Below are positions 8,039 through 58,475 of a stretch of 64,000 nucleotides of DNA, piece by piece. This DNA is from a virus (lineage: Duplodnaviria; Caudoviricetes): the IMG/VR virus record IMGVR_UViG_3300037755_000987, positions 23,416-87,415 of that record, one strand, 5' to 3'. Numbering within the stretch: position 1 is the stretch's first letter; the number at the start of each line of letters is the position of its first letter. The notes under the pieces are model-generated. The model was not told where the DNA came from. It was given only the letters and a program-made list of their open reading frames with translations, and did no database searches. Position numbers and translations under genes: made by a program.

Positions 8039-8115
8039 ACGGGGATCGTCTAACTGGCCTAGGACGCCGGCGTCTCACGTCGGTAATGGGGGTTCGAATC
8101 CCCCTCCCCGGACCA
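8039..8115 (+). tRNA. tRNA-Glu (anticodon CTC), CCA encoded
   Basis: Cloverleaf folded by hand: D stem GTCT/GGAC, anticodon stem CCGGC/GTCGG with loop GTCTCAC, T arm GGGGG-TTCGAAT-CCCCC, 3' ACCA; A1.G72 mismatch. Confidence 0.9.
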
Positions 8116-19119: not shown

Positions 19120-19195
19120 CGCTCGGTGGCGCAGCGGTCAGCGCGGCGGGTCCATAGCCCGCAGGTCGTGGGTTCGAATCCCACCCGAGCAACCA
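19120..19195 (+). tRNA. Initiator-type tRNA-Met (anticodon CAT), CCA encoded
   Basis: C1.A72 mismatch, three G-C pairs closing the anticodon stem (GCGGG/CCCGC), T arm GTGGG-TTCGAAT-CCCAC; loop reads TC-CAT-AG. Confidence 0.92.
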
Positions 19196-23338: not shown

Positions 23339-23769
23339 GGCACCGCCGGAAGATGCGAGGCCGCGTCTCGGCGGCGGCGCAGCGAGCGATCGCCAAGGCG
23401 AAGCGTGACCAGGGTGGTGCCGGAATAGAGCGCGGTCGGCTCGCCGAAGAGCGCGCGCTGGCGGCGGTGCTCGACCACCGCGAACGCTGGCCGGCTTGGC
23501 TGACCGGCGTCCGCGCCGCCACCGCCCTCGAGGACCGCCACGGCGTCGACCTCGTCGCCGAGACGGCCGACGCCGGCGAGGTCGGCATCCAGATCAAGGT
23601 GGGGAGCGCCTGGACGATCGCGAAGCACCCGGAGCGCTATCCGGAGGTGCCGTTGCTCGCCGTGGGCAGCGACAGCGGGCGGCCGCTCTACCAGCGGGCG
23701 CTGGGGCGGATCGGGGAAGGGCGTCGTCGGGAGCTGGCGCGGCGGGAAACCGAGGGGGCAACGAGGTGA
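23320..23769 (+). CDS. PD-(D/E)XK-type nuclease-like protein
   Basis: GRLAEERA...EDRHGVDLV...GIQIK. Confidence 0.6.
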   Translation: MGHATVRHRRKMRGRVSAAAQRAIAKAKRDQGGAGIERGRLAEERALAAVLDHRERWPAWLTGVRAATALEDRHGVDLVAETADAGEVGIQIKVGSAWTIAKHPERYPEVPLLAVGSDSGRPLYQRALGRIGEGRRRELARRETEGATR

Positions 23770-25523: not shown

Positions 25524-25867
25524 CGCCGGCCGAGGTGGCGCGCGCCATCGAAGCCCGGCCCGGCAGGTGGGCTGACGAGGAGCAACTGCAAGAGCACCTC
25601 GCTCAGGTGCTGGCGCCGCTCGGTTTTACTCGAGAGGTGATCGCCGGCGCCGACCGTTTCGACTTCGCGGCTGACGGGCTGATCGTCGAGGTCAAGGTCG
25701 GCGGCACGCCGGCGACGGTCATCCGCCAGCTTCTGCGCTACGCCGCTCGGCCGGACGTGTCGGGGCTGGTGCTCGCCGCGACGAAAGCGTCCCTCGGCGC
25801 AACCCCCGACACGCTGTCGGGCAAGCCGGTGGCGATCGCCCGGCTGTGGCTGTGGGGGCTGCTGTGA
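25520..25867 (+). CDS. Small PD-(D/E)XK-like endonuclease coupled to the helicase
   Basis: DEEQLQEHL...RFDF...LIVEVK; ATGA coupling. Confidence 0.6.
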   Translation: MTPAEVARAIEARPGRWADEEQLQEHLAQVLAPLGFTREVIAGADRFDFAADGLIVEVKVGGTPATVIRQLLRYAARPDVSGLVLAATKASLGATPDTLSGKPVAIARLWLWGLL

Positions 25868-26754
25868 GCCGCTTCGCGCCGGGCGACCGCGTCGAGTGGG
25901 TCTCGCGCTCCGGCATCCGGCGAGAGGGCGAGATCGTCGAGGCCCTGCCGGGCAAGCAGTGGGCGGTGCGGCCGGATGGGTGCGCGGTGGAGCAGGCGGT
26001 GGACGCCGACGACCTGAGCCGCATCCCGGAGCCGGCGGACGCCTTGGAGCTCGGCGGCCCGGTGTCGGCCGTCCTCACGGTGCGGCAGCGAGAGAGCCGG
26101 GCTCGCAAGGCGGCGCTCGCAACACCGCCGGCGCAGCGCCGCGAACGGGCGAGACGAGCCGGGAAGGCGTCGGCGGCGAAGCGCGAACGCGAGCGGCAGC
26201 CGCCGGCCGCCGCCCCGCAGCACGCCGGCGACTTCGGCAGGGCCGGTGGGTTGGCGAGCGCCCAACGGCGAAGGGAGCGCGCCGCCACGGTCGATCAACC
26301 CCCCGCCGGGAAGAACCCCGCCGCCGTGGCGCTCGGGAAGCTCGGCGGCAAGAAGGGCGCCGAAGGCCGCATGGCGAAGCTCTCGCCGGAGGAGCGGTCG
26401 CGGATCGCGGCGCGGGCAGCGCGGGTACGGTGGGCGAAGACGAAGAGCGCGACCCCGGTCGCCGACGTCCAGCACGGCACCCGCCACGCCTACATGAACC
26501 GCGGCTGCCGGTGCGCTCCCTGCCGGCAGGCGAACACCGACTACAACCGCGAGCGCTACCAGCAGCAACGGCGGGGGCTGCCGGCGACCAACGACCGCCG
26601 GAAGGTCACCCTTCGCGGTGGCGGCTCGCTCGTTGTCGAGGTCCGCGGGCTGACGGCGGCCGACGACGACATCCGCCTGGTCAACGCGATCGCGGCCGCC
26701 ATCGAGCTCTACGACGCCGCCGCGGGCGAGGGCGACGAGGCCAGCGAGCAATGA
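25864..26754 (+). CDS. Basic modular putative nucleic-acid-binding protein
   Basis: KNPAAVALGKLGGKKG...LSPEERSRIAARAARVRW and HGTRHAYMNRGCRCAPC motifs. Confidence 0.65.
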   Translation: MSRFAPGDRVEWVSRSGIRREGEIVEALPGKQWAVRPDGCAVEQAVDADDLSRIPEPADALELGGPVSAVLTVRQRESRARKAALATPPAQRRERARRAGKASAAKRERERQPPAAAPQHAGDFGRAGGLASAQRRRERAATVDQPPAGKNPAAVALGKLGGKKGAEGRMAKLSPEERSRIAARAARVRWAKTKSATPVADVQHGTRHAYMNRGCRCAPCRQANTDYNRERYQQQRRGLPATNDRRKVTLRGGGSLVVEVRGLTAADDDIRLVNAIAAAIELYDAAAGEGDEASEQ

Positions 26755-26936
26755 CGACCCCTGCCGGCCCCGAACCACGGCCCGCCCCTTCTTCTGCTAC
26801 GCTCGCGCTCGCCAAGGGAGACACACCAAAGGGTGGGGCCGGGGTTGGCGGTGTCGCGCTCGGTCGATCACGGGCTGAACGCGGGTCGTGGTCGCCGCTG
26901 GCCCCGGCCCCCGCTTCGTTGGCATAGCATCCAGCC

Positions 26937-29270
26937 GTGAGCCTCCACGACGACGTCCTCGAGCGCCTGACCGGCTACGGCGCCCGCCTCCACAGCTTCG
27001 ACGACGGCACCGTCTCGCTGATCCGCAAGATGCTCGAGGACCTCGAGGCGTCGCTGGTCGAACAGTTTCGGCTCGCCGACCCGACGGCCATCGCGCGGCG
27101 CACCCACCGCCTCGCCCGCCTCGAGGCCATCCTCGCCCAGACCCGCGCCACGATCGACGGCACCTACGCTGAGCTCGGATCGACGCTGCGCAGCCGCCTC
27201 GAGGAGGTCGCGGGGTTCTCGATCGAGTTCACGCACGGCACGCTCGTCACTATGCTCGGCCCGGTCCGCACGGCGGTCGGCATCAACACCGTCACCGTCT
27301 CGCCGGAGCTGCTGCGCCGCCTGGCTGACGACACGCTCATCTCGATGGGCGGGCGGACCGGAGCGGCGCCGGTCAAGGAGTGGCTCGCCACCCAGAAGGA
27401 CGACGTCGTCAAGGCGTTCGCCGGCCAGATGCGCGAAGGATTGATGCGCGGCGAGGGCATCCCGGAGCTCGCCCGCCGGATCTCCGGCGGTGGCCGGCAC
27501 GACGGCATCGGACCGATCTCGCGGGAGTGGGCGGAGGCCCTGGCGCGCACGGCCAACACGGCGGTGACGGCGGAAGCGCGGGAAGACGTCTACGCCGCCA
27601 ATTCGGCCGTGGTGAAGGGCATCTTCCACGTGACGACCCGTGATGAACGGACTTGCTTCGCTGCCGGCACGCTCGTACGATTGAGTGATGCGTCAGTCAA
27701 GCCAATCGAGGAGATCGTCCCCGGAGACACGATCATCTCCGGTTGCGGCCGCCCTCGAAGCGTCAGAGGAGTCCTCGAGCGGGTCGCCGCCGACTGGCGA
27801 ACGATCGCCATCGCCGGCGGCGAGCTCGTTCACTGCACCGCCACGCACCCCTTCTGGACCGCCCGCGGCTGGCGGGAGGCCGAAGCGTTCAAGCCTGGAG
27901 ACGTCATCGCTGTCGGCACCGTGTCTGGCCTGCGGCGGGACGCTGCCAGAGAAGCCGAAGGGACGGCGAGGGGGACCACTCGGACCTCCGCGCCTCTACT
28001 GCTCGCCGCGATGCCAGGAGAAGGGCAAGAGAAACATCCAGGTGACAGGACGCTGCGAGGCCTGCGGAAACGATTGTCGGTCCTACCCCAGTACGCCGCG
28101 CCGCTACTGCTCGCGAGCCTGCTACCTCGCGGCCAAGGCCAGCACGCGGCTGAAGCTGACGTGCGGGGCGTGCGGTCGCCCGTTCAAGGTGAGGGCCTCA
28201 CGCGGCAAGAGGGAGGGGGGTCGGTCGCCGAAGTACTGCAGCCGGGCGTGCACACGCAAGGCGCTGGGCTTCCGACCGCCACGGGAGAAGGTTTGCGCGC
28301 GGTGCGGCGTCGGCTTTTCGGTCGAGGGCCGGCGAACAGAAAAGGCGAAGTACTGCTCGCTCGCCTGCAAGCATGGGCCGCGGATCGAGCGACTCTGCCC
28401 CTCCTGCGGCGCATCGTTTTCGCATGTCCCGGCGCTGGATCAGGTCTACTGCTCGGTCGCGTGCTACAGAAGGAGTGCCGCCGAAACCCGCACGGAAACG
28501 ATGGTGAGGCTCGAGCTCGAGGAGATGGACCTGCCCTACGAGCAAGAGGTCAAGGTGGGTCGCTACTCCATCGACTTCGTCGTCTGCGGCTGGCTGGCTG
28601 TCGAACTCGACGGGACCTACTGGCACCGCAATCGCCCGGCAGCGAGGAAGGACGCGGCGGTGAGAGCGGCGGGCTACACGCTTCTGAGGATCACCCTCGA
28701 CACGGCGACAGACGAGTCGCGCCTTCGTGTTCTGCGTCTACTGTGCCGCGCCCTTGCGGCTGGGCCGAGGTCGTCGCGATCGAGAGCGATCAGACGCCGG
28801 CCCTCTGTTACGACCTCGAGATCGAAGGCGACCACAGCTTCCTTGTCGGCCACGCCGGCCTGATCGCCCACAACACGATCGTCTGTCTGGCCTACGCCGG
28901 AAAAGCCTTCGTCCGCGACGCCGACGGCTTCTACCAGCCGCTCGGCCACAAGCTCCCGTACAACGGCGGCGTTCCGCGGCACGTCAGATGCCGGTCGGTC
29001 GAGGCTCCGATGGTGCGGTCGCTCAAGGAGCTCGGGTTGAGCGAGTCCGAGGTTCCACCTGAGCTGCGATCCGCCTTCGGCGCCATGCCGCCGGCTGAGC
29101 AGCAGGGCGAGGCGATCCTCGCGGGGCTGAAGAAGAGCCAGCAGCTCAAGGTGCTCGGCCGCCGGCGGTACGACCTCTGGAAGCGCGGCGACGTGGGCCT
29201 CGCGCAGATGATCTCGCCCGACGGCCAGGTGCTCCGCCTCGACGAGATCGCGGCCGCGGCCACCTCCTGA
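26937..29270 (+). CDS. Head morphogenesis protein (MuF / SPP1 gp7-like), intein-containing precursor
   Basis: AEALARTANTAV, TTRDERT[intein]TIVC, PRHVRCRS MuF motifs; one uninterrupted 777-codon frame. Confidence 0.88.
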   Translation: MSLHDDVLERLTGYGARLHSFDDGTVSLIRKMLEDLEASLVEQFRLADPTAIARRTHRLARLEAILAQTRATIDGTYAELGSTLRSRLEEVAGFSIEFTHGTLVTMLGPVRTAVGINTVTVSPELLRRLADDTLISMGGRTGAAPVKEWLATQKDDVVKAFAGQMREGLMRGEGIPELARRISGGGRHDGIGPISREWAEALARTANTAVTAEAREDVYAANSAVVKGIFHVTTRDERTCFAAGTLVRLSDASVKPIEEIVPGDTIISGCGRPRSVRGVLERVAADWRTIAIAGGELVHCTATHPFWTARGWREAEAFKPGDVIAVGTVSGLRRDAAREAEGTARGTTRTSAPLLLAAMPGEGQEKHPGDRTLRGLRKRLSVLPQYAAPLLLASLLPRGQGQHAAEADVRGVRSPVQGEGLTRQEGGGSVAEVLQPGVHTQGAGLPTATGEGLRAVRRRLFGRGPANRKGEVLLARLQAWAADRATLPLLRRIVFACPGAGSGLLLGRVLQKECRRNPHGNDGEARARGDGPALRARGQGGSLLHRLRRLRLAGCRTRRDLLAPQSPGSEEGRGGESGGLHASEDHPRHGDRRVAPSCSASTVPRPCGWAEVVAIESDQTPALCYDLEIEGDHSFLVGHAGLIAHNTIVCLAYAGKAFVRDADGFYQPLGHKLPYNGGVPRHVRCRSVEAPMVRSLKELGLSESEVPPELRSAFGAMPPAEQQGEAILAGLKKSQQLKVLGRRRYDLWKRGDVGLAQMISPDGQVLRLDEIAAAATS
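27653..27681 (+). promoter_or_regulatory. Putative internal promoter for the nested endonuclease (leaderless start at 27688)
   Basis: TTGCTT (27653-58), 17 bp, TACGAT (27676-81), 6 nt, ATG (27688). Confidence 0.65.
27654..28874 (+). mobile_element. Intein (407 aa) in the MuF gene
   Basis: Block A CFAAGTLVRL, block B CTATHPFW, block F/G CYDLEIEGDHSFLV...IAHN followed by +1 Thr. Confidence 0.92.
27688..28863 (+). CDS. Zinc-finger-repeat Vsr/DUF559-type putative homing endonuclease, nested in the intein in the +1 frame
   Basis: Five CxxC...YCSxxC units, then E...YEQE...GRYSIDF...VELDGTYWH...KD...GYTLLRI. Confidence 0.88.
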   Translation: MRQSSQSRRSSPETRSSPVAAALEASEESSSGSPPTGERSPSPAASSFTAPPRTPSGPPAAGGRPKRSSLETSSLSAPCLACGGTLPEKPKGRRGGPLGPPRLYCSPRCQEKGKRNIQVTGRCEACGNDCRSYPSTPRRYCSRACYLAAKASTRLKLTCGACGRPFKVRASRGKREGGRSPKYCSRACTRKALGFRPPREKVCARCGVGFSVEGRRTEKAKYCSLACKHGPRIERLCPSCGASFSHVPALDQVYCSVACYRRSAAETRTETMVRLELEEMDLPYEQEVKVGRYSIDFVVCGWLAVELDGTYWHRNRPAARKDAAVRAAGYTLLRITLDTATDESRLRVLRLLCRALAAGPRSSRSRAIRRRPSVTTSRSKATTASLSATPA

Positions 29271-29342
29271 ACGCCGCCACCGATCGCCACCCGCGCCCCG
29301 GGCCGCGATAGCTCCCCGTCCGGGTCAAAACGATGTGTCTAG

Positions 29343-29843
29343 GTGAATTAGACGCGGTGACCCCACCACCCCGCAATTCGCGGCGCGCGGGCCGTGTTTA
29401 AGGATAATTGCGGGGACGTTTCGGGTAATTGCGACCTGCAATTATCGGAGTGTTGTCTTGAAGAGAGGACCTCCAAACCTAACCAGGAGAGAGCGTTGTA
29501 AGATATCCGGGAAATTATCCAAACCGTTGGACCTTTTTGGGCCGCCCTTGATTGACGAAATGCCCCGTCATTTGTCGGGGACAACAGCGTTTGAAGAGGA
29601 GCCGTCGGTCAAAGCCGCGGCCGGCCCACAACTTCGTCAGCCCGCAGAGCTTGCAGCGGTGGCACGTTCATTGCCCCGGGTGACCCCTCCGGGATAGTTG
29701 CTACACTCAATTACCGTCCAATTCAATTGGAATGGGGTCCAATTCAAACCCCACGTCTCGCGCTAAGACACAGAAACGACGCTCAGGACTCAACAAGCAC
29801 GCGGGTTTTGAAAGAACGTCTGTGAATTAACTCGGGTGACCCC
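29343..29843. repeat. AT-enriched non-coding segment with several iteron/operator-like repeats
   Basis: GTGAATTA-N5-GGTGACCCC at 29343 and 29822, variant at 29666; GRTAATTGCG at 29403/29424; GTCCAATTCAA at 29716/29737. Confidence 0.75.
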
Positions 29844-29970
29844 AGGGGGACATCGCGCGCACGTTAACCAGAATAAGATAAAACATGGGGGTGTAGGGGC
29901 TCTTTTATCAGTGGTAAGAAACCACAACCCGCGCGCGCGAGGGGCACCGGCCGCGAAAGAGCCGCCCCGC

Positions 29971-29993
29971 AAAAACCAAGGACGTGGTACGAT
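29971..29993 (+). promoter_or_regulatory. Extended -10 promoter motif, copy 1 (upstream of tnpB)
   Basis: AAAAACCAAGGACGTGGTACGAT; TGnTACGAT; 20/23 identical to 31174-31196. Confidence 0.65.
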
Positions 29994-30026
29994 GGTGACT
30001 CGCTCTCAGGGTAGGCTCGACCAGAG

Positions 30027-31127
30027 ATGATCCGCACCTACCGCTACCCACTCAAGCCGACGCGCGACCAGGTTCGCGTGCTCTATTCGTGGCTCTCCTA
30101 CTGCTGCGACCTCTACAACGCGGCCCTAGAGCATCGGATCGGAGCATGGCAGCAAAGTCGCGTTTCGGTGAGCTACAACGCGCAGTCCGTGGAGCTCACC
30201 GGGCTGAGGGCAGACGACGACCTCGCGGCGTCCATCCCGGTAGATGTGCAGCGCTCCGCGCTTCGTCGAGTCGACCGAGCCTTCCAGGCGTTCTTCCGAC
30301 GAGTGAAGTCCGGCGATCGCCGGCCCGGCTTCCCGCGCTTCCGCAGCCGCCGGCGCTACGACTCCTTCGGGATCGGGCGGGTGACGCCGGATGGCGACCG
30401 GGTCCGCGTCCCGAAGCTCGGGGCGGTGCGGTTCCACCTCTACCGGCCGCTGGTCGGCGAGGTCAAGGAGGTCACGATCCGCCGCTCGTGTGGTCGCTGG
30501 TTCGTGTGCTTCAACTGCGAGGTCGGCGCGGCGCCGGCGAAGCGGGCGGTCCGCTCCGCGATCGGCGTCGACCTCGGGCTGACCGCCTTCGCTGTCACCT
30601 CGGAAGGAAGGCGCTACGCCAACCCCCGGCACTTCAAGCGCGGCGAGGAGCTACTCGCGAAGCGCCAGCGACGGCTCGCCCGCCGCAGGCGCGGATCGAA
30701 GTCTCGCGAGCGTGCCCGCCTCCTGGTGGCGAAGGCGCACGAGCACGTCAAGCGCCAACGGCTCGACCACGCCTGGAAGCTGGCCGGCGCGCTGGTGGCT
30801 GAGCATGACCTGATCGCGGTCGAGGCCCTGAACATCGCGGGCCTCGCCCGAATGGACCTGAGCAAATCCGTCGCTGACGCCGGCTGGCGGGTGTTCCTCG
30901 AACGACTCGCACTCAAGGCAGAATGCGCCGGGGTGACGGTGGTCGAGGTGGACCCGCGGGGCACGTCGCAGCGCTGCTCAGGCTGTAGCGAGGTGGTGGA
31001 GAAGCGGCTGTGGGACCGCGTCCACGACTGCCCGCACTGCGGGCTGGTGCTGGACCGGGACTGGAACGCCGCCCTGAACATCCTGAACCTTGGCTATTCG
31101 CCCGGTAAGGGCGAGGCGGCAGCGTGA
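30027..31127 (+). CDS. tnpB: TnpB (IS200/IS605-family RNA-guided endonuclease), no tnpA nearby
   Basis: RTYRYPLKPT N-terminus, PGFPRFRS, RuvC motifs GVDLG / IAVEAL / DRDWNAALNI intact, CSGC...CPHC zinc ribbon. Confidence 0.95.
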   Translation: MIRTYRYPLKPTRDQVRVLYSWLSYCCDLYNAALEHRIGAWQQSRVSVSYNAQSVELTGLRADDDLAASIPVDVQRSALRRVDRAFQAFFRRVKSGDRRPGFPRFRSRRRYDSFGIGRVTPDGDRVRVPKLGAVRFHLYRPLVGEVKEVTIRRSCGRWFVCFNCEVGAAPAKRAVRSAIGVDLGLTAFAVTSEGRRYANPRHFKRGEELLAKRQRRLARRRRGSKSRERARLLVAKAHEHVKRQRLDHAWKLAGALVAEHDLIAVEALNIAGLARMDLSKSVADAGWRVFLERLALKAECAGVTVVEVDPRGTSQRCSGCSEVVEKRLWDRVHDCPHCGLVLDRDWNAALNILNLGYSPGKGEAAA

Positions 31128-31173
31128 GCGCCGAAGGCTCAAACGGAGCCACTACCCAAAAAGAGCTTTCCCG

Positions 31174-31196
31174 AAAAACCTAGGAAATGGTACGAT
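31174..31196 (+). promoter_or_regulatory. Extended -10 promoter motif, copy 2 (downstream of tnpB)
   Basis: AAAAACCTAGGAAATGGTACGAT upstream of GGAGG and ATG 31229. Confidence 0.65.
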
Positions 31197-31228
31197 CCAA
31201 GAACACCACCTCTCCGCACGGAGGCGAC

Positions 31229-58409: not shown

Positions 58410-58475
58410 CTTGAGGAGGCCCAGAACCACGAAGCGCCGAGCCGTGGGCGATCGTACCACAACCCGGAGAACGAC

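Follow-up and report, generated by a model that had tools for sequence, protein, structure and literature searches.

A Vsr-like homing endonuclease gene in the +1 frame of a contiguous intein in a phage MuF gene

The gene discussed here encodes a MuF (head morphogenesis) protein and lies in a 64,000-nucleotide stretch of viral DNA (Duplodnaviria; Caudoviricetes), positions 23,416 to 87,415 of IMG/VR record IMGVR_UViG_3300037755_000987; we refer to this whole stretch, a 64 kb part of the 87-kb record, as the window. The best explanation for its sequence, and one that we consider very probable, is that the MuF gene is interrupted by a contiguous intein and that a homing endonuclease gene of the free-standing type, encoding five zinc fingers and a Vsr/EDxHD nuclease domain, lies inside this intein on the same strand in the +1 frame. 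A preliminary description of the window had pointed to a 407-residue intein (27654-28874) with C1, THPF and HN/T motifs in an open MuF frame, to five zinc fingers and a Vsr/DUF559 nuclease in the +1 frame within it, to frames that are each the structured protein in one part and the passenger in the other, and to a contiguous intein whose nuclease is a separate protein. These points are borne out by the analysis below; feature coordinates are collected in Table 1.

The MuF open reading frame (ORF; 26937-29270, + strand) stays open throughout its 777 codons. Its two exteins match abutting parts of the PHROG 241 profile, the first match ending at profile position 238 and the second starting at 241, and are therefore contiguous across the insert. 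As the preliminary description had hoped of an alignment with intein-free MuF, the joined window exteins also align across the junction with the intein-less MuF protein of locus L004 (DGRQCVVCGALDGK). The Pfam match to Phage_Mu_F (PF04233) has an E-value of 0.0012 and, at 20 bits, falls below the cut-off of 29.6 because the intein splits the MuF domain. The intein itself begins with CFAAGT, contains TATHPF and ends in AHN with T next (28866-28877). Excised as a 407-residue protein it matches Pfam Intein_splicing (PF14890; E 5.7e-9, 36.4 bits, cut-off 35.8) and NCBIfam intein_Cterm (E 1.9e-4, 21.6 bits, cut-off 15.6), and residues C1 (27654), T62, H65, H406 and N407 are invariant in alignments A2 and A3. 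By these features it is of the class-1 HINT type and looks intact, and splicing is predicted. It is not a split intein of the 'fractured gene' kind, in which the host gene is found in two ORFs, since a single 777-codon ORF is present; no further inteins were found elsewhere in the viral record.

Only the two ends of this intein are intein in the structural sense. An AlphaFold2 (AF2) model is confident solely at residues 1-90 and 365-407, with a predicted local distance difference test score (pLDDT) of 92-96, and drops to 29-57 across residues 91-362. The genuine intein consists of only about 90 first and 43 last residues, and the roughly 272 codons in the middle are read-through of the nuclease gene, not a folded domain.

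In the +1 frame the same middle region encodes a recognizable protein, with five CxxC...YCSxxC modules followed by IDF..VELDGTYWH..RKD and matches to DUF559 (Pfam, 23 bits against a cut-off of 20.6) and MTES_1575. Free-standing proteins 250-310 amino acids long, which begin M-x(2-5)-CxxC and carry DUF559, share 32-43% identity with the product. An AF2 model built with alignment A1 has a mean pLDDT of 86, and the top solved relative is the catalytic domain of I-Bth0305I (PDB 3r3p; profile E 1.6e-16; Foldseek template modeling score 0.70, probability 1.00), with Vsr the next-ranked structural relative. Of the composite EDxHD motif, E193, D219 and H236 are present, along with E229 and D231; the final Asp is without a match. 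Base composition marks the same division of labor. The GC-rich third codon position belongs to the MuF frame up to about 27925, to the +1 frame from about 27925 to 28735, and to the MuF frame again thereafter, so that the switch in frame coincides with the domain borders; across 27927-28736 GC content is 0.74-0.90 at the third position of the nuclease frame and 0.40-0.74 at the second. The window holds a contiguous intein with a separate, non-fused nuclease gene in another frame, the host frame being kept open. Our reasoning for a separate gene is that the composition is frame-specific, that the product is homologous to free-standing nucleases, and that a shuffle test and 46 related loci, both described below, point the same way.

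An open host frame across a GC-rich gene might be thought a trivial consequence of composition, and the preliminary description had cautioned that stop-free shadow frames are common at this GC content. That caveat can be set aside, as can chance: only 92 of 20,000 synonymous shuffles of the window nuclease left the host frame open (P = 0.0046). Across the 277 conserved nuclease codons, T is the last base of 22 and AA, AG or GA the first two bases of 57; 4.5 host-frame stops would be expected and none is seen. The other alternative frames of the nuclease are closed, and the host frame alone is open. What keeps the host frame free of stops is the choice and order of synonymous codons in the nuclease gene, and the read-through is maintained by selection.

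Two further explanations would make intein and endonuclease a single fused protein. In the first, a pair of compensating one-base sequencing or assembly errors flanks the nuclease and the true element is in frame; removal of one base does give smooth junctions (...GDVIAVGT / CLACGG...). In the second, programmed ribosomal frameshifting, +1 and then -1, yields the fused protein, in keeping with the shared strand and with the lack of a canonical start at finger 1 in this copy. We regard both as highly improbable and reject them. An independent Logan assembly of SRR12681864, by a second assembler, gave the identical 777-amino-acid product (the underlying reads may be the same), the frame borders are the domain borders, and sequencing errors would give no reason for the stop-avoiding codon order in the host frame. 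By inspection, neither junction has a slippery heptamer or a known +1 shift site. The most telling evidence against a pair of compensating indels comes from other loci: the +1 offset recurs at 12 further same-strand loci from separate IMG/VR records. Every one of these nuclease genes ends at a stop codon of its own, and most have an ATG or TTG a short way upstream of finger 1, in seven cases after GGAG or GGGA. These starts and stops also speak against frameshifting, as does the antisense orientation of most of the class, which precludes fusion.

The related loci were collected by fetching 80 IMG/VR loci through an alignment of free-standing nuclease homologues; the analysis covered 85 loci with this nuclease overall. 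At 47 non-redundant loci the entire nuclease gene is spanned by another ORF, which continues for more than 60 codons past each of its ends. The flanks of the spanning ORFs read ...D(D/E)R(V/T) before CF.(A/E)GT... at one end and ...Y(N/D)L.VE....(F/Y).A.G.(L/V)VHN before C..C at the other; Intein_splicing matches 42 of 46 of them, and many match Phage_Mu_F or portal-MuF fusions. Nestings in MuF inteins comprise 34 antisense and 13 sense cases (non-redundant, the window included). In the antisense cases the register is always codon-on-codon (34/34), which makes TTA, CTA and TCA the nuclease codons that would place a stop in the host frame. These codons are entirely absent from the nested antisense genes and occur 2-18 times per gene in 13 free-standing ones; measured against extein codon usage, the joint probability of their absence is about 1e-48 over the 30 scorable antisense loci. 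Extein codon usage was the yardstick there because, with the three forbidden codons absent, synonymous shuffling within a gene is uninformative. The sense cases are all offset by +1 (13/13), and at each of the 12 other than the window the host frame remains open in at most 1 of 500 synonymous shuffles (none at 11 loci, one at L027).

Dynamic programming over all synonymous codings of 68 family proteins singles out the same registers: the two phases in use are the only ones free of unavoidable stops for every protein, and in the remaining three, stops cannot be avoided for 25, 66 and 54 of the 68. In a tree of the nucleases, 11 of the 13 sense cases, the window among them, form one group (Shimodaira-Hasegawa-like approximate likelihood ratio test, SH-aLRT, 88). 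The other two fall among antisense genes, and +1 nesting therefore arose more than once. We lean somewhat, though not strongly, towards a general scenario in which the genetic code dictates how nucleases can nest in inteins: of the five overlapping phases this nuclease family uses just two (same-strand +1 and codon-on-codon antisense), namely those where synonymous changes in the nuclease can remove every host-frame stop. In the same scenario the same-strand form would be a distinct, mostly monophyletic lineage that takes its ribosome-binding site from the conserved Gly-Asp codons of the intein, uses a weak TTG start, and has nuclease synthesis riding on the late MuF mRNA.

Some members of the collection have other arrangements. 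Free-standing family members adjoin intein-less MuF genes at L051:1936-4352, L003:4001-5857 and L004:4001-5539. At L051 the nuclease gene, which is among the nearest relatives of the window nuclease, is on the same strand just downstream of MuF; at L003 and L004 the two genes converge, with the nuclease gene overlapping MuF at its 3' end. Such neighbors fit a nuclease that targeted MuF and later moved into its intein. At L085:2274-4169 the MuF N-extein and the N-terminal intein half are in frame with a zinc-finger/Vsr nuclease, after which the ORF stops, and there is no spanning ORF; this resembles the split-intein ('fractured gene') arrangement, here with an N-terminal half that is joined to the nuclease and has a first residue other than Cys. 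Host proteins in alignment A3 include portal-MuF fusions (Phage_portal in 5, Portal_Mu in 3) and single proteins with an ADP-ribosyltransferase exoenzyme domain or an inorganic pyrophosphatase domain.

The sense relatives also suggest how the nested gene would be translated. Seven of them (L043, L049, L064, L076, L079, L082 and L072) have a TTG start 6 nt after GGAG or GGGA, and this purine-rich element is formed by Gly-Asp or Gly-Glu codons of the intein, close to where its N-terminal half ends; other same-strand relatives start with ATG. The homologous site in the window retains GGAG from the intein's Gly-Asp codons. A scan of 26700-29500 found no promoter-like site. Transcription is probably shared with MuF, because the two genes are on the same strand, no promoter-like site is present and the ribosome-binding site of the relatives lies in intein codons. 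On the same grounds the earlier suggestion of a nuclease uncoupled from capsid-protein expression is not supported. A different possibility, which we consider improbable, is that the nuclease is made from the ATG at 27688 on a leaderless transcript, with a promoter across the extein/intein junction, as a 391-amino-acid protein with a 78-residue N-terminal extension. The +1 frame is indeed open back to 27685, and the arrangement of TACGAT, 6 nt and ATG occurs once in the window (0.12 expected; at least one in 11 of 100 shuffles). The putative promoter TTGCTT-17-TACGAT, however, matches just 7 of 12 consensus bases and is not among the hits of the promoter scan. Five of the nine window copies of TACGAT look like plain Tyr-Asp codons in coding-like, GC-rich contexts, and the extended form tggTACGAT is found at the two intergenic copies flanking a downstream TnpB-type gene and on the minus strand at 58451-58456, not at the nuclease site. 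The extension itself is Ser/Pro-rich off-frame sequence. Relatives have no upstream extension of the window's length; their +1 frames are closed upstream and their starts lie beside finger 1.

Related loci of the window's class show purifying selection on the nested frame. The preliminary description had called for a comparison of both frames; for related pairs, the same bases give omega values of 0.07-0.30 when read in the nuclease frame and of 1.0-1.7 when read in the host frame. The collections searched hold no close relative of the window copy itself: the best identity is 35-43%, a search of 5.8 billion proteins with the intein region returned only the same protein, metagenome contigs reached 35-36% at best, GenBank phages gave 28% protein identity and no DNA match, and IMG/VR had none close. 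This weighs against our reading as applied to this copy, as do the absence of ATG, GTG or TTG in the +1 frame between 27691 and finger 1, an Ala codon in the catalytic Asp column (Table 1), and a terminal branch of 0.98 against a median of 0.46. The earlier characterization of the nuclease as complete was accordingly too generous, there being no canonical start where relatives have one and Ala at the position of Asp222.

Judged from its sequence, the window nuclease has about even odds of still being made and active. A rival account, which we place only slightly below an even chance, is that the nested gene is already dead: it would be a recent pseudogene, deprived of its start and with a damaged active site, in an element that is now just a splicing intein with a junk linker. 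This would fit a late stage of the homing cycle and is consistent with the long branch. TCG/CTG stands where relatives have TTG; one transition at 27907-27909 is enough to turn TTG into TCG, and it leaves the host-frame amino acid unchanged (ATT to ATC). In I-Bth0305I, D222N abolishes cleavage (PMC3239194). There is also an example close at hand: the inteins of the nearest relatives, L027:2806-4041 and L036:3224-4459, differ at one base in 1236, a C to A change in L036 that replaces the conserved Tyr of CYR by a stop codon in the nuclease frame without closing the intein frame; the L027 nuclease has an ATG and the canonical Asp. The change is a fresh knockout of the nested gene, and loss of the nuclease with retention of the intein therefore does happen in this group. 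Against the idea of a dead gene, we note that: (i) the 392-codon +1 frame is open, and 277 neutral codons at 67% GC would stay open with an estimated P of about 0.002; (ii) 58 of 69 conserved family columns are kept (family range 51-69); (iii) no Cys ligand has been lost, nor has D219, E229, D231 or H236; (iv) third-position GC follows the nuclease frame, as in a frame long under constraint and (v) CTG can initiate at a low level. Moreover, the canonical position is likewise not Asp in L025 and L059, two members of the same clade, which have Ser 11 residues before the conserved Gly and whose nuclease frames are open. The window nuclease has an Asp four residues after the Ala column (RKD), and the catalytic register may differ in the clade of L025, L059 and the window.

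Given the arrangement described above, a plausible sequence of events for the contiguous intein with its nested gene is as follows. The intein interrupts MuF immediately ahead of the position that opens the CxxC motif in alleles lacking an intein. The precursor would be translated through the unstructured linker, and the HINT halves would splice MuF together. In this clade the nuclease would be translated separately from the same mRNA, from a weak TTG a few codons before finger 1 served by the GGAG of the intein's Gly-Asp codons. It would then cut intein-less MuF alleles, so that intein and nuclease are copied in together.

Table 1. Positions of the exteins, intein parts and nested nuclease features in the window
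Feature	Position	Strand	Details
MuF N-extein (239 residues)	26937..27653	+	ends ...TTRDERT; PHROG 241 'head morphogenesis' E 1.8e-32, profile positions 31-238
Contiguous class-1-type intein, 407 amino acids, MuF frame	27654..28874	+	Cys1 ... His-Asn, then Thr+1
N-terminal splicing (HINT) half, residues 1-90	27654..27923	+	AF2 pLDDT 92-96; MuF-frame codon-position GC
+1-frame ORF, 392 codons + stop, entirely within intein	27685..28863	+	
Only in-frame ATG of +1 ORF	27688..27690	+	with GTG at 27685; 78 codons upstream of finger 1
Homologous start site, GGAG-ACGTCA-TCG-CTG	27897..27912	+	GGAG 27897-27900 (intein Gly-Asp codons), TCG 27907, CTG 27910
Conserved homing-endonuclease core	27919..28750	+	homologues E down to 3e-34; alignment A1; AF2 pLDDT 86
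Five Cys4 zinc-finger modules	~27922-28470	+	
Host-frame read-through linker, intein residues ~91-364, overlapping nuclease gene	27924..28745	+	AF2 pLDDT 29-57; GC-rich position in +1 frame
Vsr/EDxHD nuclease domain	~28470-28745	+	D219 at 28573, E229 at 28603, D231 at 28609, H236 at 28624
GCA (Ala) at catalytic Asp column (Asp222 of I-Bth0305I)	28639..28641	+	Asp in 27/29 family members
C-terminal splicing half, residues ~365-407 (...YDLEIEGDHSFLVGHAGLIAHN), ~43 residues	28746..28874	+	AF2 pLDDT 92-96; intein_Cterm match
MuF C-extein (131 residues)	28875..29270	+	starts TIVCLAYAGKAF; PHROG 241 E 4.2e-13, profile positions 241-354

The window has further features of note. Directly after MuF is a TnpB-type gene (30027-31127; PHROG 506 transposase E 1e-91), with no tnpA seen; its Logan copy matches Pfam OrfB_IS605 and Cas12f1-like_TNB. 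A 750-bp stretch of 55-60% GC without ORFs precedes it (region 29275-31200), and tggTACGAT flanks it at 29985-29993 and 31188-31196. Just upstream of MuF, ORF 25846-26754 has a Cys-rich C-terminal stretch (about residues 185-243) that matches PHROG families of HNH endonucleases and helix-turn-helix DNA-binding proteins (E 2e-6 to 4e-4) and may be another DNA-binding module of the mobile-nuclease type beside the head gene. The only Rfam matches in the window are tRNA genes at 8039-8112 and 19120-19192, with nothing in or near the intein.

There is precedent for nucleases encoded out of frame within inteins, as the preliminary description had suspected, and two recent preprints describe them (10.1101/2025.01.02.630785 and 10.64898/2026.09.14.751524). 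Gosselin, Arsenault & Gogarten (bioRxiv 10.1101/2025.01.02.630785) reported antisense 'VSR -1 ORF' inteins in MuF-like minor capsid proteins of actinobacteriophages, and, more broadly, full inteins whose LAGLIDADG or VSR-like nucleases run antisense, together with an EndoVII-like nuclease encoded out of frame. In that study all inteins of minor capsid (MuF-like) proteins are non-canonical, and in the supplementary table 16 of 16 VSR entries are '-1 ORF'. The window is the same-strand +1 version of this recently described layout. It has in common with the VSR -1 ORF inteins the MuF host family (IPR006528), a contiguous intein, a Vsr-like nuclease as a separate overlapping ORF, an unstructured middle in the host frame and a proposed origin by invasion of an intein by a free-standing nuclease gene; the antisense loci of our own analysis share the insertion point, before the first Cys of CxxC. 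It differs in that the nuclease is on the same strand, in +1, probably sharing the MuF transcript and with a putative ribosome-binding site inside intein codons, whereas theirs is on the opposite strand, and in having Thr, not Cys, as the +1 extein residue. The sense +1 Vsr form is absent from the 2025 and 2026 Gogarten-lab preprints.

Sense-strand overlap as such is known from the EndoVII-like homing endonuclease 'frame 3' of the 2025 preprint and from a LAGLIDADG '+2 ORF', out of frame in a cyanobacterial dnaX intein (Phillips et al., bioRxiv 10.64898/2026.09.14.751524). Both resemble the window in having an overlapping ORF on the sense strand, a contiguous intein and a disordered host frame, and in dnaX the nuclease frame is under purifying selection, as in the window's class. 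The nuclease families and host genes are different, however, and for EndoVII the frame given is 3 and not +1. 'Fractured genes', in which a free-standing Vsr-like endonuclease gene lies between the halves of a split intein (Dassa et al. 2009, PMC2677866), share with the window the nuclease superfamily, the phage setting and a nuclease unfused to the intein. They consist of two ORFs and rely on trans-splicing, whereas the window host frame runs unbroken through the nuclease gene. With regard to the nuclease itself, I-Bth0305I is the prototype of the EDxHD homing endonucleases (Taylor et al. 2011, PMC3239194; PDB 3r3p), and the equivalents of its D196, H213 and extra Glu are conserved in the window nuclease. 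I-Bth0305I is intron-encoded and has NUMOD DNA-binding motifs; the window nuclease differs in having five Cys4 zinc fingers and Ala at the Asp222 position.

The layout can be read as a snapshot of a free-standing homing endonuclease gene inside a splicing-only intein, with fusion still to come, and it favors a 'splicing first, nuclease later' account of how inteins originated. A single indel at each end separates the same-strand +1 form from a canonical in-frame intein nuclease, and this form is the intermediate on which the 2025 preprint speculated for same-strand ORFs. About 800 bp encode two products here, and gene callers report the long ORF only, so such nucleases go unannotated; the two-phase rule together with the stop-avoiding codon order provides a simple computational signature for finding more of them. 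Should the two-phase rule hold in general, it would predict at which places and by which route a free-standing nuclease gene can turn into an intein nuclease.

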